Sequence record: MN176217
DNA from: Escherichia phage vB_Eco4M-7
DNA: 64,000 bases
Direction: 5' to 3' (one strand)
A model generated the notes under the pieces. That model did no database searches. It was not told the DNA's origin and saw nothing but the letters and a program-made list of their open reading frames with translations. Below are positions 2,024 through 61,890 of this stretch, piece after piece (positions within the stretch are counted from its first letter, which is position 1; every line of letters begins with the position of its first letter). The position numbers and the translations under genes are program-made.

Positions 2024-2294
2024 TTACGTCATGATACGTCATGGTTTTCTATCCGTAAGAGTGTACAGCCCTTGCCGCGCCTGGCTTGTACATTAATCTT
2101 ACGGATGATACGGATAAAACTGAGCATCGTTATATATAGAATTCGAAAAATTAATTAACTCCATTTTAAAAACATTTATATTAATTTTTTTCATATCCTC
2201 ATACTTATGTTAATTTATATATTTAACGTATCATCCGTAAGATATAAGTAAAAACAAAGACTTGCGGCAATACGGATGATACGTCATGATACGC
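2024..2294. repeat. Palindromic GGATGATACG repeat cassette, copy 1: inverted arms CTTACGGATGATACGG (2098-2113) and CGTATCATCCGTAAG (2227-2241) flank a 113-bp AT-rich core; extra half-sites at 2024-2044 and 2271-2294
   Basis: Read directly; same architecture and a conserved core (TATATAGAATTCGAAAAATTAATTA) recur at 18117-18396. Confidence 0.7.
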
Positions 2295-2458
2295 TTCAAC
2301 CAGCCAGCAGCGGCTAAGTCATTGATTTGCATAACAAGCGGCGAAAGGGATGGATTTCTTTTATACGTATCAAACAGTACACCACGCACCACGGTCCGCA
2401 ATCCTATTTGCACTATGATTTGTGTACGTTTATAGCCATAATGAACATCAATCTGCAC

Positions 2459-2488
2459 TTGAATATAATGTCCATCCATTGTATAATT
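2459..2488 (+). promoter_or_regulatory. sigma70-like promoter candidate (-35 TTGAAT, 18-bp spacer, -10 TATAAT)
   Basis: Hexamers read from sequence upstream of ORF 2508. Confidence 0.35.
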
Positions 2489-2507
2489 CACACTATTAAT
2501 TTGCACT

Positions 2508-2996
2508 ATGGGATTTTGCACTATGAGTCAAGATTATGTAGCGATGCCTGAAGACTTTGAAGACCCGCGATTCGCAGAGCACAATCAGGCTTTATTCGAT
2601 GAGTTCATTGACCTTGTTATTCAGGGCCATGACATGCGCGCAGCTTTTGCACTAGTATTTGGAATGGAAGTTGCAACGGATAACTACACTGGCCAGCGAA
2701 TCCTTTGCACGCAACGCAATCCATACTACAAGATGCGCTTCAAAAAGCGTATGGAAGAGATGCCACTCAAGGATTTGTGGAGCGTAAAAGGTGCAATTCA
2801 CAATTTGGTCAAGCTTGTGCGTGATCCAGAAGTCGCAGCGTCAGCCAAGCTTAATGCTATTCGTGAACTGAATATCATCTACGACATCACGATGATTGAT
2901 GAAAACGGCAACAGCAAGATGGGCCGTTCCATGGACGATTTCTACAAGGATTTTGGAGAGGCGGCCAAAGAAGGCGAGCAATTCTCCCGCCACTAG
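2508..2996 (+). CDS. hypothetical early protein
   Basis: ORF 162 aa with acidic N-terminus; alternative start at 2523. Confidence 0.45.
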   Translation: MGFCTMSQDYVAMPEDFEDPRFAEHNQALFDEFIDLVIQGHDMRAAFALVFGMEVATDNYTGQRILCTQRNPYYKMRFKKRMEEMPLKDLWSVKGAIHNLVKLVRDPEVAASAKLNAIRELNIIYDITMIDENGNSKMGRSMDDFYKDFGEAAKEGEQFSRH

Positions 2997-3395
2997 CCAA
3001 TTTGCACTATAAAACGGCCCTAGAACACATTGTCTCCAATTCTAGGGCCATCGGTAATACGACGGGGAAGGTTGCAACCGTAAACGCGTTAGAAAGTGTA
3101 TTATTATAAGTCATCTTTTAGTCACCTTACGTAACAATTTACGACCTTCAACCGTCCAATCGAACGACTCCACCAGCAGATTCGCACTATAACCTAAGAC
3201 CACTCGACCCTTCTCGTTATCGACCCGCCAGCAAGTCTCGAATAGCATTCGATTTGCACTATTAACTATTGCTGCGACTCGCGTAGGATAAGCGCAATTT
3301 GCACTATGGTCGTAAAGGGATAAGGTGCGACCACTTCCGATGGACAACGTAGCGATGAGAATGAGCGTATTCATAAGCCACCAATTTGCACTATG

Positions 3396-3419
3396 AAAAG
3401 CGACCCCGAAGGGCCGCCA
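3396..3419 (-). terminator. Rho-independent terminator candidate (7-bp stem, UUCG tetraloop, U tract) on minus strand
   Basis: Minus-strand RNA GCGGCCC-UUCG-GGGUCGC-UUUU immediately downstream of stop of 3425..4051. Confidence 0.45.
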
Positions 3420-3424
3420 TTCGA

Positions 3425-4051
3425 TTAGATAATCTGGAAGGTGTAGGACTTGTTGCCGAACTCGAAGTTCAAGCGTCCAGCTTCTTTAAGCTTCATGCGG
3501 AAGCGAATATGCTTGCTATCCGGCAAGCCCAGCGCGGCGAACGCTACGCGGACCGATTTGAACTCGCCTACACCCTCGACCATAACGCCGTTACGGGTGA
3601 GACGCTTTTGCGCCACTTCTTTATTATCCCAACTTTTTGCAATACCTTTGCTATTCGAACGGCGATGGGAAGGAATTGCAATTTTATTCGCTCCAACCGG
3701 AGCATCATTAAGGCCGCTTTTAACGAAGGCTTCATATTCTTCGTCGGTCATCGCGTCGAGTTCTTCCTGGGTCGGCTCGGCCTTTTTAACGACCGCGCGC
3801 GCCTTATGCGTTTTTACATCACTGGACACTTCCTCGCGAGACTTTGCGTCTGGGATGGGCGATTCGTTGGACGGATCATCGAGCGCGTTTAAGGATTCGA
3901 TTAACGCGATTACGCGAGTCTCAGCGGTGCGACGGTCCGCGAATTTTTTAATCGGCTTTGAGCCTGAATTTTCGTTATAGAATGCAACGAGGTCGGCGGT
4001 CTTGGTTGCGATTACGTCGCCGCTGGTGGAGAAACGATTCAAACTGGCCAT
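3425..4051 (-). CDS. hypothetical protein
   Basis: 208-aa minus-strand ORF with natural composition and a terminator after its stop; overlapping + strand ORFs are R/F-rich and look spurious. Confidence 0.4.
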   Translation of the reverse strand: MASLNRFSTSGDVIATKTADLVAFYNENSGSKPIKKFADRRTAETRVIALIESLNALDDPSNESPIPDAKSREEVSSDVKTHKARAVVKKAEPTQEELDAMTDEEYEAFVKSGLNDAPVGANKIAIPSHRRSNSKGIAKSWDNKEVAQKRLTRNGVMVEGVGEFKSVRVAFAALGLPDSKHIRFRMKLKEAGRLNFEFGNKSYTFQII

Positions 4052-4192
4052 AATAAACTCCTAGTTTGGGAGCGGTGTCAACGACCTATTCGTTAACTCA
4101 TCCGTCCCGATATGAGTACATTATAATATAGTGTAGAAAAAAAGTAAAGCACTTTTTCGATAAAAATGAGATAAATTATTTTATCTTTTTTC

Positions 4193-4220
4193 TTTACTTC
4201 TTCGTACACTCGCGTATACT
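4193..4220 (+). promoter_or_regulatory. Promoter-like element copy A (-35 TTTACT, 16-bp spacer, -10 TATACT) within conserved block CTTTACTTCTTCGTACACT
   Basis: Near-identical block repeated at 4589-4619. Confidence 0.4.
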
Positions 4221-4276
4221 TGTTTATATCGAGACGGGCGATGGCCCTTCCTTCTAATAGCATCGGGAGTTTTATT

Positions 4277-4579
4277 ATGACCACTTTAATCTCTTCTATC
4301 CTTACTTACGACGAAGACCGTTTAACCGTTCGCTCTCTTATCGCCGCCGTTAACGCGGAACTAGAATCCACCATTATTAAGGTCCGCGCGGTCGCTTTCG
4401 TCGGCCTTTCCTTCGACGATATTAAGTACGCCGAACGTAGCGTCATCCGCTTCGCGAAGACCGATGACGAAGCCGTTACCCTTATCGAGACGGTTACGCC
4501 GCGCGGCGAAGCGTTAATTATCGTCGAGTATATCGACGTAGAAGGCGATAAGGCTTATAAATATTTTATCGCAAAATAA
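4277..4579 (+). CDS. hypothetical small acidic protein
   Basis: ATG 4277 (MTTLISS...), 100 aa. Confidence 0.4.
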   Translation: MTTLISSILTYDEDRLTVRSLIAAVNAELESTIIKVRAVAFVGLSFDDIKYAERSVIRFAKTDDEAVTLIETVTPRGEALIIVEYIDVEGDKAYKYFIAK

Positions 4580-4590
4580 CGAAAAAGTGC

Positions 4591-4619
4591 TTTACTTCTT
4601 CGTACACTAAGACTATAAT
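4591..4619 (+). promoter_or_regulatory. Promoter-like element copy B (-35 TTTACT, 17-bp spacer, -10 TATAAT), followed by 8-bp stem hairpin GGTAGCGA-ATAGG-TCGCTACC in the leader (4641-4661)
   Basis: Read directly. Confidence 0.4.
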
Positions 4620-4686
4620 GTTTTATATCGAGAGGGGATGAGGTAGCGAATAGGTCGCTACCCTCCCGACTAACTAGGAGAATATT

Positions 4687-4977
4687 ATGATTACTTTAGC
4701 CGCTATCCGCGACGCTCGCGTCGAGACTTCCGAAAATTCCAACGTATTTGGCGAAAAGCTTAAAAACGTCTATCTTTTTAACGTAGACGCAACTATCGAG
4801 CCTATTTATGAGCCGATCAACTTCCTCGACCTTTACAAGTATCGCGACGAGGACATCGTATCATCCCGCGTAACGATCAACGGCTTCGTCTATACGATTA
4901 CCGAAATCGGCGGCGAATATCTCGCGGTCCCGCAACTCGGCGGCGAAGTAACTTTCTTTAAAATCGTAAGCCTGTAA
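4687..4977 (+). CDS. hypothetical small protein
   Basis: ORF 96 aa with AGGAG RBS at 4676-4680. Confidence 0.4.
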   Translation: MITLAAIRDARVETSENSNVFGEKLKNVYLFNVDATIEPIYEPINFLDLYKYRDEDIVSSRVTINGFVYTITEIGGEYLAVPQLGGEVTFFKIVSL

Positions 4978-4988
4978 GGAGAAGGAAG

Positions 4989-5198
4989 ATGACTAATATG
5001 AATAATTCTCTTAACGCGCGCGCCCATCGCACCGCCGTAATCGATATGTTCCGCGAGCTTAAGGAATTATGCGATAATATGAACGCGATGTTATCCATCG
5101 GCGGCTGGGGATACGAAGAAGAGGTTAAATACGCGGTTATGCGTCGCCGTCGCGATAACGTCCTTGGACAAATTAAACGCGCCGGATTATTCCTTTAA
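4989..5198 (+). CDS. hypothetical small protein
   Basis: ORF 69 aa; RBS GGAGAAGGAAG upstream. Confidence 0.4.
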   Translation: MTNMNNSLNARAHRTAVIDMFRELKELCDNMNAMLSIGGWGYEEEVKYAVMRRRRDNVLGQIKRAGLFL

Positions 5199-5224
5199 TT
5201 ATAATTACCCACCGTTACTAATAG

Positions 5225-5250
5225 GCCGCGCTTAGTCGCGGCTTTTCTTC
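5225..5250 (+). terminator. Rho-independent terminator (GCCGCG-CTTAGT-CGCGGC then TTTTCTTC)
   Basis: Perfect 6-bp GC stem plus T tract right after the + strand early gene block. Confidence 0.55.
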
Positions 5251-5370
5251 GTCCCTATCTCGATGCGCTTCTCCGCGAAAACTCCTTTATCCTTCCCTTC
5301 GTCGTCGCATAATCTTCGTCGAGATGCGCCTTAGTTCGCATAACAGGTATTACGTTAAATGGAGAACATC

Positions 5371-5442
5371 GCGTAAGTCGTTGTTTTATATAGACACATA
5401 TATCGGACCGTTAGGGCGGGTCGCGTAAGTCGTTGTTTTATA
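5371..5442. repeat. Direct repeat CGCGTAAGTCGTTGTTTTATA x2 (5371-5391 and 5422-5442)
   Basis: Read directly in 650-bp non-coding region. Confidence 0.6.
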
Positions 5443-5568
5443 AAGGCGCAAAACTTTCCCTTCGTTCCGAACTAAAACGAGAAATATGCCGACCCTTCGC
5501 CCGAAAATAGTACGCATGCGAAATTACATGCATCTCGAATAATCCCCACCGATACTATCCTACACGCA

Positions 5569-5622
5569 ATCATTCGCTTTCGAATCATTATGCTTCATAT
5601 TATCATGCGTCGAATCATTCGC
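5569..5622. repeat. Direct repeat AATCATTCGCTTTCGAAT x2 (5569-5586 and 5605-5622)
   Basis: Read directly. Confidence 0.6.
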
Positions 5623-5903
5623 TTTCGAATTGTAACGCTGGAAACTGTAACGGCGATTGATTATTGCGTTCGTGTGGTTTTTATGGCATGGGTCTTTTGG
5701 TGCGTTTTGCTACTTGATGGAATTTGCGGTACACTAATCAAAATACGACACATTTGGTCCACTAACTTTTCAAAGAAAAAGTCCTAGACAGTACCGTACT
5801 ATTTTGTACCCACAGGAAATTTGCAGTACACTCCTGCGCAGCAGGCAAAATAAAGGGCCGCACTAAGCGACCCACGATTCACGGTTAAAGCAACATCCAC
5901 CCA

Positions 5904-7124: not shown

Positions 7125-7412
7125 TTATCCATTAGACCCTTCTCCGCTGTTAATGTTGTCTAGAATCAAGGTTGGAATTTCATCTTGAGTTCTGACTTTG
7201 TAATGCGAAGGCATTTTGCTTTCTAACAATGCCTGTTCGGCTTCTCCCTTTGTCTCAAAGAGCGGGATGCACCAATCAACTGCATCGCCATGTTCATCGC
7301 CTGTAACGGCTTTCAAAAAGACAAGGCGTTTGTCTGCAGGGTCGATTCCGCAAATTAAGTATTTTGGAAGAGCCTTTGCTTTCTGAGCCTTATCAATATC
7401 TTCAAATTTCAT
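7125..7412 (-). CDS. hypothetical protein
   Basis: ORF starting MKFEDIDKAQ... Confidence 0.35.
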   Translation of the reverse strand: MKFEDIDKAQKAKALPKYLICGIDPADKRLVFLKAVTGDEHGDAVDWCIPLFETKGEAEQALLESKMPSHYKVRTQDEIPTLILDNINSGEGSNG

Positions 7413-7493
7413 AAAACACCTCACTTGTTAACGTATAATGAGTATAACTTAATTGCGCATAAAGTAAAGGCGCTTTTCAGCGCCTTGAGTGAA

Positions 7494-9833
7494 TTATTTT
7501 GCTGCTTTCAGCGCGGCTATCTCTGCCTCGAGAACCTCGATGCGGTCCATCAATGCAAGAATAGCCTCGTGGTGCAGTGCTGCTGCTACGCCTGGTGTGT
7601 TGACAGATTTTATGTTATCCAACGTCGAACCGTCGCGCAGAGTAACAGGCGATGACTGTGTTTCAGATACTGCTTCAGGAAAGTCTTTCTCTACATCCTG
7701 GGCGATGAAGCCAAAACCGACGGAGCCATTAGTTTCCAGAGTCCATGCCACGCCTCTAATATTGCGCATCTTGACGAGTGGATCAGTGATCCGCTCAATG
7801 TTACTTTTAATACGTTCATCAGATATACTCCGCCACTCCTGACACCTTGCTATTCCATCGGAGCCAAAAAGATAAGAGGCCGCGCCGCCTGTCCCGCTGT
7901 AAACGTTCAATTGAGCGCGGTCCAGCGCGGTCGTGCTACTCCTTATGCCTCCGAGAATCCAGCTTCCGCTGTACCAGTCACCGCTGATTGAGTTTACAAA
8001 ATTTCCTTCTGGAACGTTGGCATAGTTTTGAATCCTTATGGCGTTGTTTTCTGCAGCAGCAACGCCTACTGAATTAACTGGGGATGCAACAAGGTCTTTA
8101 GACCGGATATATGCATCAACAAATATTGTTCCATCAGGGCGCAGAGTTCCAATCTGGGATGTGGAATTTGGCAACACCAATTTGCCATCTTGGTTAAATG
8201 CCCACTCTTGCACCCCATTAGATATCACCGCACCTTGTTCAGATGTTAATCCATCAATCTTGCCGTATGCCTGCAAGAATGCTTGATACGCGATGTTCGT
8301 GCCAATCTTATATTCAGATTTTACACTACCGCCTCTGACAAGCGTTCCGGTTGCAGGTTTTACTGCGTCACCATTAATGACGCTCCAAGTCGTATTCGCG
8401 GCAACAAATCCACCAGATGCACGAATCACCCAAACACCTTCAAAGGCATTAGGTCGAATTTCATTCGCATCATCACGTCCATAAGCGCCATTTGACAGCG
8501 ATGCATCAAAGTTCACGTCTACATAATAACCATCAGAAGTCCCGCGCATACTTCCAGCAGTTTTTACTATTTTTGGCTCAAATGCGCCATATCCTCGCGT
8601 CACGCCAGAGGTGCCGAATGCAGTAAGCATAGACACATTAGGTGAACCAGAAATATTTGGTGCAGCACTCTGCCTGACACGACCGTCGTTTGAAGATACA
8701 CCTCCATCACCACGCCCGAATAAACCTGGGATTGAGCCTGCTTGAACGCCGTTGCGGTCTGGAACTCGAAATGTAGTTGTGCCGTTGCCTAATGAATACT
8801 TGCCGCGTTTCGCTGGGTCCGCTAACCAATCTGCATCAGCAATAGGCGAAAGCATTTGCGCATATGCCCAAAGTTCAGGCCAATCTGCACGATTGAGTAA
8901 TTGGCCGTCAGAAACGACTTCGTAAGGCTGGATGTAAGCACGACTGTCTCGCAAGTGGAAGTCGCCGACGCCATAGTTCATAACACCGTTCATGCTTGGG
9001 CCAACGGTGCCTGTGTTCACTAAGTTCTCAACCCAACGCTTGGTTGCAGCATCATAATCGTTTACCGGATCACCAGCAAGCGGAGTCGGCCCTTGTGGAC
9101 GAATATTCAACCAAGCTTGAGCATTGTCTGCTGATCCTGTGCCGCCCATTGAAGTTGGAACGATGCTTTGATCAGCGACTTGTCCGAATCCAAAAGCAGA
9201 CTTCATCCCCTGTATGGTAGTTTGACCTGTGCCGCCATTTGCGACTGGTATAACGCTTTGCGTGTTATAAACTTGAACCCAATCAGACCAGGATGATATA
9301 TCGACGCTATACAACCTTTGGTATACTGTGTTTATCCAGTAAGGCGTGTATCTCTGCACACAGCTGTTCGTTGAAACTCCCGTTTGTAAAACTTCAAGTA
9401 TTCCAGCTTGTTCTACAGGATAGTTGAGTGCTGTTGACGCCCCAGCATTAGTCGGTTGGTAATATTGACCGAACCAGCTTCCGTTCAGCGCGTTAAGGTT
9501 TATGCCATTAGGAATTACGCCAAAGTTTCGGACAGTACCCGTCAAAGTCGCGGCAGTAGTTCGAATGGAAAGCATATCACCAGCCGCCCAAGCACGCGCT
9601 GCAGTACCTTCCTGTGCACGCTGCACGGTCAGGACGTTTCCAACAACGGCTGTTACTGTGACGATTTCGAATTGGAGGCCTGTTGCGGCGTCAACGATTG
9701 TCGCCACTACACGCTCGTTTGCGCCCAAGGTCGGAAAGCCCGACCCTGAGCGAATTGTGATTGTGGTGTCTGAAGTCGTCGTTGGCTGAGCGAGCGCGAC
9801 CTCAAAGTTGTTTTTGAATATTAGCCTTGGCAT
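7494..9833 (-). CDS. Tail fibre / tailspike protein with C-terminal intramolecular chaperone (peptidase S74-like) domain
   Basis: 779 aa; G/T/S/N-rich beta-type body; C-terminal SDERIKSNIE motif typical of the auto-cleaving chaperone, followed by a coiled-coil tail. Confidence 0.65.
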   Translation of the reverse strand: MPRLIFKNNFEVALAQPTTTSDTTITIRSGSGFPTLGANERVVATIVDAATGLQFEIVTVTAVVGNVLTVQRAQEGTAARAWAAGDMLSIRTTAATLTGTVRNFGVIPNGINLNALNGSWFGQYYQPTNAGASTALNYPVEQAGILEVLQTGVSTNSCVQRYTPYWINTVYQRLYSVDISSWSDWVQVYNTQSVIPVANGGTGQTTIQGMKSAFGFGQVADQSIVPTSMGGTGSADNAQAWLNIRPQGPTPLAGDPVNDYDAATKRWVENLVNTGTVGPSMNGVMNYGVGDFHLRDSRAYIQPYEVVSDGQLLNRADWPELWAYAQMLSPIADADWLADPAKRGKYSLGNGTTTFRVPDRNGVQAGSIPGLFGRGDGGVSSNDGRVRQSAAPNISGSPNVSMLTAFGTSGVTRGYGAFEPKIVKTAGSMRGTSDGYYVDVNFDASLSNGAYGRDDANEIRPNAFEGVWVIRASGGFVAANTTWSVINGDAVKPATGTLVRGGSVKSEYKIGTNIAYQAFLQAYGKIDGLTSEQGAVISNGVQEWAFNQDGKLVLPNSTSQIGTLRPDGTIFVDAYIRSKDLVASPVNSVGVAAAENNAIRIQNYANVPEGNFVNSISGDWYSGSWILGGIRSSTTALDRAQLNVYSGTGGAASYLFGSDGIARCQEWRSISDERIKSNIERITDPLVKMRNIRGVAWTLETNGSVGFGFIAQDVEKDFPEAVSETQSSPVTLRDGSTLDNIKSVNTPGVAAALHHEAILALMDRIEVLEAEIAALKAAK

Positions 9834-17019: not shown

Positions 17020-17940
17020 ATGACGATACCAATCAACACATTCCCTCTATCTGGACAAACTCCAGTCTTGCCTGCGGTGTATGCTAATGGCTTGGCGATT
17101 GTCTCAGAATTCACATCAGATAAAAACCTGATTGTTCCATTGAGTCCGCCGCTTGCATCAGGGTATAACTCAGTAGGTCAATTCTTTATGATTGGCAATG
17201 ATGGCGATTCGACCAGTAAGCCTAATCTGACATTGTCTGTACCTAAGATGGACATCACAGACGTTCAAACTGGCTTGACTGCATCAACAATCACCATTGC
17301 TTTTGGAGAAGCGGTGATTATAGGAATGGAGTCTGGAGGGTCCAAGAATGCTGTCGCCGTTAAGGTAGTCAAATCCAGCGACAACCAATACACGTTACCA
17401 GCTGCGACGGATTCCGTTCTCGGCGGCGTCAAAATAGGAAGCGGAATAAGCGTCGCAGGTGATGGTACAATTAGCGTCACTCAATACTCATTGCCGATTG
17501 CGTCAGCATCTACTTTAGGCGGCGTAAAGGTCGGTACAACTCTATCAATTGATGGTTCCGGTGTGCTTAACGCAGCGGAAAGCACCGTCCAGAATGCCAC
17601 GAACAGTGTTAGCAATCCTCCAACCACTTTGGTTAATCTGGCAACCTTAAACCTTCCTGCAGGAAAGTGGCTTGTGACGGCAAGTCAGTTGACTGTCGCG
17701 ACAGCAGGAATTCAAGCGAACACCGGAATTACAGCCAAATTGTCAACAAGCGATTCAGATATTACGGATGATGCATTTACGATGTCAGCGGGCATTCGGG
17801 CTGCAGGTCGTTTTGGCGGCAACATCCCGACAAAAATAATCACTCTTGCCGCGCCTGGTGATGTATATCTAAACTATCAGTGCACCGATGCATTGACATC
17901 TACCGTTCACGGACAGATCACCGCAATTAAGCTGAACTAA
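17020..17940 (+). CDS. Virion structural protein with internal LGGVK(I/V)G repeats
   Basis: Repeats LGGVKIGSGISVAGDGTISV / LGGVKVGTTLSIDGSGVLN; S/T/G-rich. Confidence 0.4.
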   Translation: MTIPINTFPLSGQTPVLPAVYANGLAIVSEFTSDKNLIVPLSPPLASGYNSVGQFFMIGNDGDSTSKPNLTLSVPKMDITDVQTGLTASTITIAFGEAVIIGMESGGSKNAVAVKVVKSSDNQYTLPAATDSVLGGVKIGSGISVAGDGTISVTQYSLPIASASTLGGVKVGTTLSIDGSGVLNAAESTVQNATNSVSNPPTTLVNLATLNLPAGKWLVTASQLTVATAGIQANTGITAKLSTSDSDITDDAFTMSAGIRAAGRFGGNIPTKIITLAAPGDVYLNYQCTDALTSTVHGQITAIKLN

Positions 17941-17950
17941 AGAGGAAGTT

Positions 17951-18088
17951 ATGCAAAAGATCATTCAGTCACGTTATGTTAAAGTGCGAAATATTAATTG
18001 CAACTCTTTGCTTTCTTGGAAATGGGCTGTTTATGACTCAATGTTGATTGGCGTTTTAGTTGCAGGAGTGCTATTTAATATTCACTGA
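17951..18088 (+). CDS. Small hydrophobic protein, 45 aa (not in ORF track)
   Basis: ATG 17951 preceded by AGAGGAAG; translation MQKIIQSRYVKVRNINCNSLLSWKWAVYDSMLIGVLVAGVLFNIH. Confidence 0.3.
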   Translation: MQKIIQSRYVKVRNINCNSLLSWKWAVYDSMLIGVLVAGVLFNIH

Positions 18089-18116
18089 ATTCATCGGCAA
18101 AGGATTGCCGCGAGTT

Positions 18117-18396
18117 TTATACGTATAATGACGTATCATACGTATCAAGTAAGTTATTGTTTTCAAAAGAATCTTACGGATGATACGGATGATACGCATC
18201 GCCGCCGTACTATATAGGAATTCAAATAAATTAATTTAAAATTATATATCTAATTTAATTTTATTTTTTTATAAACTCTTATATATGAAAAGTATCCGTA
18301 TCATCCGTATCATCCGTAGCACACCAGTGATAGCGCGGCTTATACACCGATACGGATAAAAATACGCCTCATTTTATCCGTATCATCCGTATCACA
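18117..18396. repeat. Palindromic GGATGATACG repeat cassette, copy 2: CTTACGGATGATACGGATGATACG (18173-18196) and GTATCCGTATCATCCGTATCATCCGTAG (18292-18319) flank a 95-bp AT-rich core; more half-sites at 18347-18396
   Basis: Read directly; paralogous to cassette at 2024-2294. Confidence 0.7.
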
Positions 18397-18451
18397 CTAA
18401 TAAAGGCGCGGCTATATCGGTTGTTATACATATTCAAACCATAATTATTGT

Positions 18452-18480
18452 TTGCCTAAGTTTTTTTCATTAGATATAAT
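18452..18480 (+). promoter_or_regulatory. sigma70-like promoter (-35 TTGCCT, 17-bp spacer, -10 TATAAT) for capsid operon
   Basis: Hexamers read from sequence; GAGGG RBS and ATG follow. Confidence 0.5.
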
Positions 18481-18503
18481 ACACAATACTTATTTGAGGG
18501 TGG

Positions 18504-19922
18504 ATGCGAATGCAAACGGCACGCGAAATTGACAAAAATGGATTCTTGACGATTATGGGTTGTCCAATTTCGTCATTTGGCATTTTTGATTATTCTGCTG
18601 GTCAAGTTGGTCTTGATGGTGATCCGAATCGCATCGTAAAAGTCTATCGCCCTGAGTCAGCGGTGAAAGACCCCGAAGCGATAGATTCATTCAAAAATAT
18701 CCCTTTCATCGACAATCACGAAATGCTTTCTGGATTTGAAGGTGATGAGGATAACACAGCACCCGAAGAGTATGGAGTTGATGGCGTTCTGACTGGCAAT
18801 GTTTATTATGACAAGCCATGGATGCGCGGCGACCTTAAAGTGTTTAGCCGTCGTCTGAAGAAGGCCATTGATTCTGGAAAGGTTGACTTGTCTTTGGGCT
18901 ATGACTGTGAATTCATCATACAGTCTGGAGAGTTTGACGGGCAGCCGTATGAAGTGGTGCAGACAACTCTTCGCGGCAACCACATTGCTCTCGTGGACGT
19001 TGGTCGAGTACCAGGTGCACGGGTGCTGGATGGTCGTTGCTTTGACCATCTTTGTTTGACGACTGTAACACCATCCAACGAGGATTTAGACATGCCAAAA
19101 CCGTTAAAAGGTAAAGCGCGTGATAATGCTGTTGAACAGCTGAAATCACTGATCCCTGCGCTCGAACAATTTCTGAATGAAGAGAGTACTGAAGCTGCTC
19201 ATCAGGACGAAGTTGAAGTGAAAGCAGAAGAGAAGGACTCAACCGAAAATCGTGAAGAAGTAATGGTTGATCCAGAAGTCAAGGCAGAAGCAGAAGAAAC
19301 CCCAGAAGGTGAAGAGAAGTTTGAAGTTGAAACTGAATCTAACGCTGGCGGCGAACTTCCGCAATTGATCAGCCAAATCGAAGCACTTATTGCAAAACTG
19401 AAAGGTGGCGCGGTAGGTGATGAAGAAGAAGTTGAAGCCGAAGTCAAAGACGAAGAAGTTGAAGTCAAGGCTGAAGATGTATCACCTTGCGACAAAGCTG
19501 AAGATGTGGTTAGCGGCCTGCAAAACAGCAACGTAAAGGGGGCTTCGGTCGAAAAAGATGACAAACCGACAAAAGCGGCGAAAGCGTCGCCAGGTCCAGC
19601 AAAAGGGGAACACTCAATGGCATCTGATTCAGCAGTTGCTGCTTTCTACGCTGATTCTGCTCGTAAGAATAGCCTCTACCAGCGCCTGTCTAAAGTTGTT
19701 GGTGCCTTTGATCATGCAACTATGGACTCCAAGTCCGTAGCGAAATATGGCGCTAAAAAGTTAGGCTTGAAGTGCGTTGATGGTGCTGAGTTTGACGTGG
19801 TGGATAATTATCTACGCGGCGTTGAGCACGGTCAAAAACAGCGTGTAGTCGCAAAACAAAAGGCCGCTGCGGATTCTGCAGCAACTGACGAAGCATTTGA
19901 AGCTTGGTTGAAAGGGGAATAA
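18504..19922 (+). CDS. Putative prohead protease / scaffolding fusion protein
   Basis: Globular N-terminal 190 aa then long E/K/A-rich acidic low-complexity region; sits between head morphogenesis and capsid genes. Confidence 0.45.
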   Translation: MRMQTAREIDKNGFLTIMGCPISSFGIFDYSAGQVGLDGDPNRIVKVYRPESAVKDPEAIDSFKNIPFIDNHEMLSGFEGDEDNTAPEEYGVDGVLTGNVYYDKPWMRGDLKVFSRRLKKAIDSGKVDLSLGYDCEFIIQSGEFDGQPYEVVQTTLRGNHIALVDVGRVPGARVLDGRCFDHLCLTTVTPSNEDLDMPKPLKGKARDNAVEQLKSLIPALEQFLNEESTEAAHQDEVEVKAEEKDSTENREEVMVDPEVKAEAEETPEGEEKFEVETESNAGGELPQLISQIEALIAKLKGGAVGDEEEVEAEVKDEEVEVKAEDVSPCDKAEDVVSGLQNSNVKGASVEKDDKPTKAAKASPGPAKGEHSMASDSAVAAFYADSARKNSLYQRLSKVVGAFDHATMDSKSVAKYGAKKLGLKCVDGAEFDVVDNYLRGVEHGQKQRVVAKQKAAADSAATDEAFEAWLKGE

Positions 19923-60219: not shown

Positions 60220-61890
60220 ATGTCAATTAATAATGGCAATCTTCCAGAGGATACAGGTGATGAATTTGGTGCAATCTTTGACGAAATTCAAGATGCAGGC
60301 GTTTCGGAAGAAATGCAGGCAGCAGAGCAGCAAGGCACCAGAGCTAAAATCAGCCTTCAACATAAAGCTGTTGAAAAAGATTCAGAGCGCATGGAATGCT
60401 ACGGTGAAGAAGACTTGGTTGAAAGAGCACGCTTGCTCGCCTCACTTCAGGTAATCAAGTTCCCTCACTACAAGCCTACCAAAGATGACTTCGTTCTACA
60501 GGCAGACCGGACGAGTGACATGAACCGTTATGCGGTTTTCGACGCGTTGTTTGATAAGGGAAGTGGCGTTGTTCCATTCCCTCACAAAGATACTTTTCGT
60601 GGGCGCTTAGTCGACCATCGCGGCGAAACATTCACCGACCGTACTTTGGAAGTCACAGAGATAGTTGCCGCTGTCGACGCAGCAGGATTGTCCAACCCAA
60701 ACTCACGTCAGGTCGCTCAATCCTATAAGGAATGGGCCTTGCGTTATCAGCGCGACGACCTGATGGACTTCTTCTACAAGAAGCTGCCTGAATGGGACGG
60801 TACTGCGCGCATCGAGAAATACCTTATCGAGCTATTCCGACCGTTCGATACAGAGTTAAACCGACAAATCGGTGTGTATTTTTGGCTATCGCTCTACAAC
60901 CGCCTGACCAACCCTGGCTGTCAAGCGCCAATCTCCATCGCGCTCATCGGCGGCCAGAACGCAGGGAAGAGTTATTTTAGCAAGCTGCTTTGCGAAGCTA
61001 TTATGAACGACCGCCACGCAACACCGATTCCGTTGAACTTAGCCGCGCAAAACTTCAACCCGTTCTTGCGAGCTATTACGGGTCGCTCGATTATCGCGAA
61101 CGTCGGCGAGATGACAGGCTTTAAAAAGGCCGACATCGAAAACATGAAAGCATTCCTGACTAAGACGGAAGATGACCTGGACTTCAAATTTGAAGATACG
61201 CAGGTTAAACCACGCCAGTGGATTGCGATCATGGACGGCAACGAATACGCAGGCATGCAGCGTGACGACACGGGCAACCGTCGTGTGTACCCTATCTTTG
61301 TTGGCCAACTCGCTGACAAGGACGGGCAACCGAACTGGTCTAAGGACTTCCAAGCCGACCTTTCCACTTTGAAAGAAGACGTTTGGCAGCTTATGGCTGA
61401 GTGCGCTGCGTGGATGGAGAAGCACGGCGAAGCAGGCTATAACGCGTTTGTTGGTGAAACATCTCGAATGCTTACTGAGTTCAGTAAAAACGAAATGGAA
61501 CGTGCGCGCGGCGTTATCCGTGATGAGATGGTGGACAACGACCTTGTTGAAGTCGTCATCACCGCGCCTTATGACCGACATCACAGCGGACGCTGGCACA
61601 TCACCAGTGGTGCTATTGCTATGGGATTCAGAGCGAAGTGTGGCAAGTCGCCTTTCTCTCGTACCCTTGCGCCGCACATGTCGAAGCTTGGTTTTGAGCC
61701 TGCAACCTATCGCAACCAGCGCGGGTACTTTACGCCGCTGATTAAGAATGAAGCAGGAGAATACATTTCTGATTTGATGACCATCTTAGCGTATCTTATC
61801 CGCGATGAGTCTGACCCTGAAGATATTGAATTCTTGAAGAAGGTTATTGAGCGTAAACGTTCTTTGGGAAGAGATAAGGATGAATTCTGA
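60220..61890 (+). CDS. P-loop NTPase, VirE / D5-like primase-associated helicase candidate
   Basis: Walker A IGGQNAGKS in the middle of a 556-aa protein; downstream of primase. Confidence 0.5.
   Translation: MSINNGNLPEDTGDEFGAIFDEIQDAGVSEEMQAAEQQGTRAKISLQHKAVEKDSERMECYGEEDLVERARLLASLQVIKFPHYKPTKDDFVLQADRTSDMNRYAVFDALFDKGSGVVPFPHKDTFRGRLVDHRGETFTDRTLEVTEIVAAVDAAGLSNPNSRQVAQSYKEWALRYQRDDLMDFFYKKLPEWDGTARIEKYLIELFRPFDTELNRQIGVYFWLSLYNRLTNPGCQAPISIALIGGQNAGKSYFSKLLCEAIMNDRHATPIPLNLAAQNFNPFLRAITGRSIIANVGEMTGFKKADIENMKAFLTKTEDDLDFKFEDTQVKPRQWIAIMDGNEYAGMQRDDTGNRRVYPIFVGQLADKDGQPNWSKDFQADLSTLKEDVWQLMAECAAWMEKHGEAGYNAFVGETSRMLTEFSKNEMERARGVIRDEMVDNDLVEVVITAPYDRHHSGRWHITSGAIAMGFRAKCGKSPFSRTLAPHMSKLGFEPATYRNQRGYFTPLIKNEAGEYISDLMTILAYLIRDESDPEDIEFLKKVIERKRSLGRDKDEF

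Follow-up and report, generated by a model that had tools for sequence, protein, structure and literature searches.

Paired repeat cassettes in Escherichia phage vB_Eco4M-7, one at the genome left end and one ahead of the capsid genes, as candidate protein-docking sites

A repeat cassette upstream of the head protease gene

We analyzed a 64,000-nucleotide stretch of the genome of Escherichia phage vB_Eco4M-7 (accession MN176217; hereafter the window), focusing on a repeat cassette in the noncoding gap that precedes the capsid genes. The phage belongs to Wifcevirus, a genus of PB1-like E. coli myoviruses with genomes of 66-72 kb that are distant kin of Pbunavirus; over positions 17900-18560 the window matches Escherichia phage vB_Eco4M-7n with 100% identity and a further 27 records, almost all of them from Wifcevirus, with 95-99%. 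Genes at this site are arranged in the order portal, MuF-like, head-fibre-like, a 45-amino-acid open reading frame (ORF), the gap, protease, cement/scaffold, and major capsid protein. The initial annotation of the window described a noncoding gap of 560 bp; the true gap is shorter, about 421 bp (18089-18509), because the 45-amino-acid ORF (17951-18088) is annotated in all relatives. A terminator-like hairpin (18095-18110, plus strand, from a terminator scan) closes the portal/MuF/head-fibre/45-amino-acid ORF unit just 5' of the cassette, and the first gene 3' of it encodes the head maturation protease (18510-19922, plus strand; PF09979).

The cassette (18119-18394; cassette 2 below) consists of four arrays of the 9-bp unit ACGGATGAT (core ATGATACG) around a 91% A+T core, and the tandem and inverted repeats noticed in the initial annotation were recovered by repeat scans, shuffled controls and Tandem Repeats Finder (TRF). 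A degenerate far-left array on the minus strand (18119-18147; 3.1 units of ATACGTATC, TRF period 9) comes first; position 18140, in this array, is C in most relatives, where the unit is perfect. The left arm (18175-18196, plus strand; TACGGATGA x 2.4, found by both the repeat scan and TRF) is directed at the core, and the right arm (18294-18318, minus strand; ATCCGTATC x 2.8) faces it. These inner arms, taken as 25 nt each, are 96% complementary. The far-right group (18349-18394) comprises a lone plus-strand site (18349-18357), an inverted pair, and a tandem array on the minus strand (18376-18394; 2.1 units); the inverted pair is a perfect one of 13 bp, in which 18349-18361, including the lone site, matches 18372-18384. 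As for the core (18197-18293, with its dyad centre at ~18250), the A+T-rich stretch of about 95 bp reported earlier is indeed present: 94 nt separate the inner arms, and with an A+T fraction of 0.91 over 80 bp this is the most A+T-rich stretch of the window.

The repeat cluster ahead of the capsid genes is real and nonrandom, and its motif is confined to two places in the 64 kb. Allowing at most one mismatch, GGATGATACG has 14 matches in the window versus 2.8 expected, and none of 100 shuffled sequences attained 14. The 8-mer ATGATACG also occurs 14 times, with six copies at 18132-18379 and another six at 1965-2286. The remaining two, strays at 4857 and 32008, do not make a third cassette; they are single matches in coding DNA, at chance frequency. 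In a motif-blind scan for 8-mers in both orientations, the same two cassettes ranked first with six copies each, no other place exceeded four, and the remaining repeats were mostly one-orientation coding repeats. Neither TRF nor the 8-mer scan found any other iteron-like array in the window.

Short oriented boxes accompany the repeats. Two CGCGGC boxes on the plus strand, at 18334 and 18407 (18334-18412), lie to the right of the cassette 2 core and have a mirror GCCGCG at 18107, to its left. With the second cassette included, GCCGCG stands left (1981, 2074, 18107) and CGCGGC right (18334, 18407) of the cores, five boxes versus 1.5 expected; boxes like these, similarly oriented, stand beside the cassettes of Myosmarvirus, Pbunavirus and uncultivated lineages, though their iterons differ. 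This conservation hints at a second, conserved binding factor. The conserved box GCGGCWWA was rejected as a strong signal, as it is just ~2-fold enriched across the window; the oriented CGCGGC form, which is stricter, is retained as a minor observation.

The genome left end lies in the paralogous cassette

The second cluster (cassette 1, 1934-2372) has inner arms at 2099-2118 (plus strand) and 2226-2241 (minus strand), an A+T-rich core at ~2119-2225, and further sites at 1934, 1965, 2025-2043, 2270-2295 and 2366. When the two cassettes are aligned, a comparison that the initial annotation had suggested, they share the motif, the layout and strings within the core: the alignment runs through AATCTTACGGATGATACGGAT...CATCG...TATATAG(G)AATTC.AA.AAATTAATT, of which the part TATATAG(G)AATTC.AA.AAATTAATT is the core string common to both. 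Both cassettes are imperfect palindromes of ~150 bp. Folded as single-stranded DNA, each forms a long hairpin, at -30.6 kcal/mol (z = -6.7) for cassette 2 and -23.2 kcal/mol (z = -5.6) for cassette 1. None of the Rfam 15 families matches cassette 2 at its gathering score (the best match has 31 bits versus a gathering score of 80), and the sub-threshold matches, to plant MIR hairpin families, reflect the long palindromic hairpin alone.

Cassette 1 is where the chromosome ends. The records of the Wifcevirus phages WFC, WFH, Ro157lw, SP13 and Mansfield share a first base, which corresponds to window position 2163 (...AATTAATTAACTCC followed by ATTTT...). These five records, whose ends are mapped, were produced by three or more independent groups, and that of Mansfield was opened at the direct terminal repeat (DTR) boundary called by PhageTerm. 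The left DTR boundary thus falls between 2162 and 2163, in the 17-nt apical loop (2159-2175) of the cassette 1 palindrome, and because of this position the left end is made near the dyad centre of cassette 1. The first base of WFC maps to 2163 and its last base to 5778, which delimits the terminal repeat region (2163-5778); a repeat length of ~3.7 kb is found for WFC and WFH, and 3,673 bp is also given. The homologous position in cassette 2 is between ~18240 and 18241, and none of the five records begins there. The gene for the small terminase, TerS (2523-2996, plus strand; phmmer E = 2e-34 to PDB 7UXE, "Small terminase," and annotated as such in Mansfield), starts 360 bp downstream of the genome end. 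The coupling of cassette 2 to another cassette, made in the initial annotation, is thus strongly supported (common motif, layout and core strings, together with the lineage co-variation described below), and the label given there to that partner, an early-region cassette, fails: the partner is the site of the genome left end.

Cassette pairs in related lineages

Cassette pairs are found beyond Wifcevirus, each with a motif of its own. Serratia phage SMP (Myosmarvirus), whose protease is 55% identical, has cassettes before the protease gene and before the TerS homologue; their repeat (TTACTTTTCG / AAAAGTAA) differs from that of Wifcevirus, and the two have a common core string. In Pbunavirus HTN4 (protease 45% identical) both cassettes are present with a third motif, GGTAATTTGG and its variants. 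The genome ends agree as well. PhageTerm DTR edges of MyoSmar and MTx lie inside the Myosmarvirus cassette 1 core, 14 nt apart, and the records of the Pbunavirus phages Ab28 and Ab29 open within the core of cassette 1, at starts chosen from a "single fixed termination" of reads, a DTR being absent. For a 73-kb IMG/VR genome with a DTR, too, the left end falls within the core of its own cassette 1. A genome left end is therefore seen in the cassette 1 core of four lineages (Wifcevirus, Myosmarvirus, Pbunavirus and the 73-kb IMG/VR genome).

We scanned IMG/VR with TerS and protease alignments. In at least 12 lineages, one or both of two features lie 370-750 bp upstream of terS, and in most of them both do: the A+T-richest 80 bp of the 10-kb locus, and a 7-mer array that is lineage-specific and has copies in both orientations. 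Where one contig carries both genes, the TerS-upstream and protease-upstream regions have 8-mers in common that are rare or absent in the other DNA that we fetched (for example, AAATAACC, CAACTATC, CCCGGTAA, TACCTATA, CCGGTATAG, CGCAACTA and GAAAAGTA): 45-87 common 8-mers per pair versus 17-31 in controls. The excess is clear in 8 of 11 pairs and marginal for the two CGCAACTA-lineage contigs; it fails for XcP1 (Carpasinavirus) and for one contig with a truncated end. Ahead of the protease gene, seven lineages have arrays of 6-10 copies, one of them on a 72,415-bp contig, BcepF1-sized. In one lineage, 3300044683_172, neither cassette core is A+T-rich. In total, the cassette pair is present in at least nine related lineages (Pbunavirus, Myosmarvirus and uncultivated ones), and in each the motif is common to its two cassettes. 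The pair is thus old, with a motif that drifts between lineages; that the two copies keep one motif within each lineage points to one binding protein for both.

Carpasinavirus is a natural one-cassette comparison lineage: FoX7 (L025, 3480-3960) has a single cassette, with six copies of CGTTATTTA in both orientations around an A+T core. Spurious-looking ORFs are annotated over repeat arrays and cores in several public records (HTN4 ORF_76, FoX7 gp08-10 and gp78c, SP13_001, Mansfield_001 and MyoSmar_007; spans L014 7543-8196, L024 7306-7717, L025 3592-3756, L006 69-230, L007 125-283 and L011 582-947).

Within the genus, we aligned six Wifcevirus genomes over the cassette 2 gap. From TATAGGAATTC (18212) to the promoter described below the sequence is nearly invariant, with no changes across 80 nt of core, and the core-to-promoter segment is the best conserved part of the gap. 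Bas101 has a left arm one 9-bp unit shorter, and the region of the terminator-like hairpin differs among Wifcevirus clades. Clade-specific differences cluster leftward, in the terminator and the pre-core spacer (18090-18213), and halt abruptly at the left edge of the core, in contrast to 18213-18560. Low regional divergence could explain the invariant core, because the protease gene to the right is equally conserved. We therefore do not take within-genus core invariance as proof of constraint, the whole right segment, protease gene included, being nearly identical among genomes; the pattern may mark a recombination or mosaic boundary rather than a special constraint on the core.

Promoters downstream of the cassettes

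A sigma70 promoter, TTGCCT-17-TATAAT (18452-18480, plus strand), precedes the protease/scaffold/capsid operon; it matches the consensus at 10 of 12 positions and is invariant in the six genomes. A sigma70-like promoter, TTGAAT-17-TATAAT (2461-2489, plus strand), is read from the sequence upstream of terS. Both have positional counterparts among the transcription start sites (TSSs) mapped in Pbunavirus 14-1 (bioRxiv 10.1101/2023.10.13.562163): P014 (13257) corresponds to the promoter at 18452-18480, and P041, mapped before terS, to that at 2461-2489. In the same data set, P040 (59399) lies within the right arm of cassette 1, its -35 element and spacer covered by iterons GGTAATTTGG, and none of the mapped 14-1 TSSs falls in the cassette 2 core. 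The sequence upstream of P014, TATTGTTCCGCTTATTTACC...TATATAAT, matches HTN4. In JG024, Garbe et al. placed a predicted sigma70 promoter within the stretch that forms the cassette 2 core, and they noted unexplained A+T-rich intergenic motifs; we rejected a promoter in the core, given the 14-1 map and the absence of a good match in the window.

The initial annotation had proposed a regulated late promoter or an internal origin. The promoter itself is supported by its consensus matches and its mapped 14-1 homologue. The last repeat of cassette 2 ends at 18394 or 18396 and the -35 element starts at 18452, so the repeats neither overlap nor abut the promoter as an operator would. They lie 56 bp upstream of the -35 element, and any control of the promoter by them is conjectural. 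The promoter at 18452-18480 is probably an ordinary host-type one that restarts transcription past the upstream terminator, separate from the cassette.

A candidate packaging-site twin

What could such a cassette do? The position of the genome end in the partner cassette, together with the adjacency of that cassette to terS, shifts the likeliest function to packaging or end formation. Our preferred reading, to which we give a probability of roughly 0.4, is that cassette 2 is an internal paralogue of the cassette where the chromosome left end forms, and a second docking site for the protein that marks this end, probably the small terminase. A sequence-specific phage protein would assemble on the convergent arms; the likeliest candidate is TerS, which is a decameric ring in the homologue of Pbunavirus E217. 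At cassette 1, where the end position is established by the records, the bound complex would position the left-end cut. At cassette 2 the same protein may dock either to pair with cassette 1 or to load or titrate terminase on replicated DNA, and, as a secondary role, the docked cassette might modulate the adjacent sigma70 promoter of the protease-scaffold-capsid operon. The cores of lineage 3300044683_172, which are not A+T-rich, are easier to reconcile with a site of cleavage or assembly than with an unwinding element.

Several well-studied systems resemble parts of this arrangement. In the packaging (pac) site of P1, hexamer clusters lie on both sides of the cut. There, as in SPP1, short recognition repeats flank the region of the first terminase cut, in or beside the TerS gene and its promoters, and cassette 1 fits on end position and terS linkage. 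In SPP1 the flanking elements are pacL and pacR, on either side of pacC (PMC9611059); the same source describes a C-terminal helix of E217 TerS for which a role in stacking rings has been proposed. Unlike these pac sites, however, the site here is duplicated and the second copy has no mapped end, the arms are convergent tandem 9-bp units in a 150-bp palindrome, the Wifcevirus cut is the exact left end of a ~3.6-kb direct terminal repeat with no headful series, and TerS binding is putative. For T4, a "twin-ring pac synapsis" has been proposed, in which homologous gp16-binding sequences in genes 16 and 19 are paired by stacked TerS rings (PMC9611059). The likeness is in two homologous candidate terminase-recognition sequences kilobases apart in one genome; the T4 sites, however, are short coding sequences without arrays, palindrome or fixed end, and pairing of the cassettes is conjectural. 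At T7 ends, the short-repeat arrays SRL and SRR, the phiOL/phiOR promoter and A+T-rich secondary origins lie beside the terminal repeat and are thought to serve concatemer processing. Short repeat arrays and origin-like elements directly beside a DTR boundary are thus shared with T7, whereas the repeats, proteins and geometry differ, and no internal copy is known from the capsid gene module of T7.

A number of observations weigh against TerS docking at cassette 2. The cassette lies 16 kb from terS, upstream of the protease gene, rather than beside the TerS gene as a pac site would. Few precedents exist for a second pac-like site that is left uncut, and it would bring no obvious advantage. According to a review (PMC9611059), purified E217 TerS did not bind DNA appreciably in vitro; the review leaves the DNA unstated and gives no sign that it included these cassettes. 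The sole cassette of FoX7 is directly 3' of the primase-helicase gene, 2.9 kb upstream of the TerS homologue, and FoX7 has no cassette before the protease gene and none directly before the TerS gene. The phage also needs an origin, given that it encodes a VapE-type (putatively SF3-like) helicase together with a primase of RepB type, and the window yielded no further iteron array. For most lineages, the end of the VapE helicase gene is only ~1 kb from terS, on its upstream side, and at this distance linkage fails to separate TerS from VapE as the binder. On the one hand, the cassette stays with terS where the helicase gene is more than 5 kb away (Wifcevirus, L040, L049 and L052); on the other hand, in Carpasinavirus it stays with the helicase gene. 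We therefore rejected gene linkage as a means of choosing between the two. Finally, the record of the Pbunavirus phage E215 (L015/L019, NC_042080.1) is linearized in the cassette 2 core (...GTAACGTTC / CAATAGAATTC...), its source paper stating no end-mapping method, and we take this start only as a hint of minor DNA ends at cassette 2, as it could also be an assembly break at the palindrome. A 68.5-kb Wifcevirus metagenome contig (L075, IMGVR_UViG_3300045988_152943) ends at the left arm of cassette 2 (window ~18171), which is probably an assembly break at the inverted repeat but could be a minor DNA end, and one 3.3-kb low-coverage contig begins 42 bp ahead of the protease gene. Contig ends in public assemblies were rejected as a proxy for DNA ends at cassette 2, as their breakpoints are arbitrary.

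Alternative functions of the cassette pair

The main rival, only somewhat less probable in our estimate, is that the cassettes are twin replication origins, an internal origin having been among the initial suggestions. The arrays would be iterons for a phage initiator, such as the VapE-type helicase with the RepB-like primase, which would load head-to-head on the convergent arms and open the A+T core; cassette 2 would then be an internal origin, and the core of cassette 1 would in addition become the left end, for example if displacement synthesis duplicates the terminal repeat. Precedents exist: the rep-ori of Staphylococcus aureus pathogenicity islands (SaPI), oriL of herpes simplex virus (HSV), a 144-bp palindrome with UL9 sites, SPP1 oriL/oriR, P4 ori/crr, and the T7 secondary origins beside the ends. 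Such iteron origins (SaPI rep-ori, HSV-1 oriL/oriS, SPP1 oriL and oriR, P4 ori and crr) likewise have convergent sites around an A+T-rich centre, those of SPP1 and P4 have two distant copies bound by one protein, a layout like that of the cassette pair, and most lineages have a cassette close to the helicase/primase gene. In the window, the four arrays of 9-bp units form an iteron cluster that converges on cores of 94-113 bp in a palindromic, extrusion-prone structure, and the genes for helicase and primase are at hand with no competing array. A cassette is located after the helicase gene in many uncultivated relatives and in three genera: in Pbunavirus and Myosmarvirus this is cassette 1, and in Carpasinavirus it is the only cassette. 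The cassettes nevertheless differ from iteron origins in having genome ends in the core, which requires an extra assumption in four lineages, and origin activity is putative. The core of cassette 2 is 91% A+T in the window, but neither core is A+T-rich in lineage 3300044683_172, and the cassette is with terS, not with a displaced helicase gene, in Wifcevirus and three other lineages; the helicase gene of the window (60220-61887) is 8.6 kb from cassette 1 and farther from cassette 2. GC skew gives no support either: GC and cumulative skew follow gene strand only and were rejected as an origin signal, and the skew minima reported in a Pbunavirus study, at 42 and 52 kb, are elsewhere.

We regard an upstream regulatory region as unlikely. 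A phage regulator bound to the arrays would repress or activate the sigma70 promoters of the terS and protease-capsid operons, and in three genera each cassette is indeed followed by a sigma70-type promoter and then a late gene. The homologous promoters are mapped TSSs in 14-1, where P040 even starts within a cassette arm, and the best conserved part of the gap runs from the core to the promoter. This explanation sits poorly with the spacing in cassette 2, where most sites are 130-330 bp from the -35 element and the nearest is still 56 bp upstream, and with the 14-1 map, which has no TSS in the cassette 2 core; other structural-gene promoters do without a cassette, and the genome ends in the cassette 1 core of four lineages are left unexplained. 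Very improbable is a selfish palindromic element resembling a miniature inverted-repeat transposable element (MITE), or a remnant of duplication that is neutral and itself functionless. The 25-nt terminal inverted repeats around a short A+T-rich core would suit such an element, but there are just two copies and none scattered through the window, in contrast to the many copies of a MITE; they are syntenic over at least nine lineages whose proteases are only ~45-58% identical, their motif co-varies in every lineage, and the core is invariant within the genus. The remaining probability goes to some other function or to a mixture.

A more elaborate form of the packaging reading, which we consider quite unlikely, is a two-site packaging signal in PB1-like phages. 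Stacked TerS decamers would bridge both cassettes, only the looped or paired complex would license the cut in the cassette 1 core, and the same complex would tune head-gene expression. If so, it would be a naturally occurring counterpart, defined by sequence, of the twin-ring synapsis proposed for T4. In a variant of this idea, each cassette would be an origin as well as a packaging site, so that the making of the terminal repeat would be coupled to the starts of replication.

Significance of the cassette pair

To our knowledge, neither a packaging signal nor a replication origin is known for PB1-like phages, a group that includes Wifcevirus and Pbunavirus, the latter among the most used therapeutic Pseudomonas phages. 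Published accounts of Pbunavirus ends conflict, with defined ends, a single fixed end and circular permutation all described. Some public records annotate a "repeat_region" at the cassette site; a limited literature search found no description of the pairing, of the co-variation, or of the location of the genome end in cassette 1. Repeat-flanked sites of protein assembly, whether pac-like or ori-like, are of a known kind, and what is new is a conserved, co-varying pair of them, one at the end of the chromosome and one ahead of the capsid operon. The structure of E217 TerS has been solved, with no known DNA target (PMC9611059). The cassettes supply concrete DNA substrates: a lineage-specific 9-bp unit, a cut position (between 2162 and 2163), and an internal twin that differs in outcome. 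The motif co-variation over at least nine lineages amounts to a natural specificity-swap series with which the binding protein could be sought. In engineered or rebooted genomes, harm could come from fragment junctions or deletions placed in the cassette gaps.

Other features of the region

The right DTR boundary (~5778) has repeats of its own. Direct repeats GGAA(A)TTTGC(G/A)GTACACT lie at 5719-5738 and 5815-5835, and an array with a 15-bp period (TCGAATCATTCGCTT, 5568-5630) precedes the boundary; their motif is unlike that of the left-end cassette, and they could be a right-end signal. In one IMG/VR contig (L073 ~7200-7900, IMGVR_UViG_3300036845_000169), one-orientation arrays unlike the cassettes (15 copies of ATTTGAA and 13 of ATCATTC) are located ~2.2-2.7 kb downstream of terS.

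A protease identical to that of the window is encoded on 68.8-kb and 29.7-kb contigs in E. coli assemblies (L030 and L031: GCA_012087555.1 and GCA_012572685.2), which suggests phage carriage or contamination of those isolates. The 45-amino-acid ORF at 17951-18088, annotated in all Wifcevirus records examined, has a hydrophobic C-terminal half, and at the corresponding position Pbunavirus and Myosmarvirus have small ORFs.

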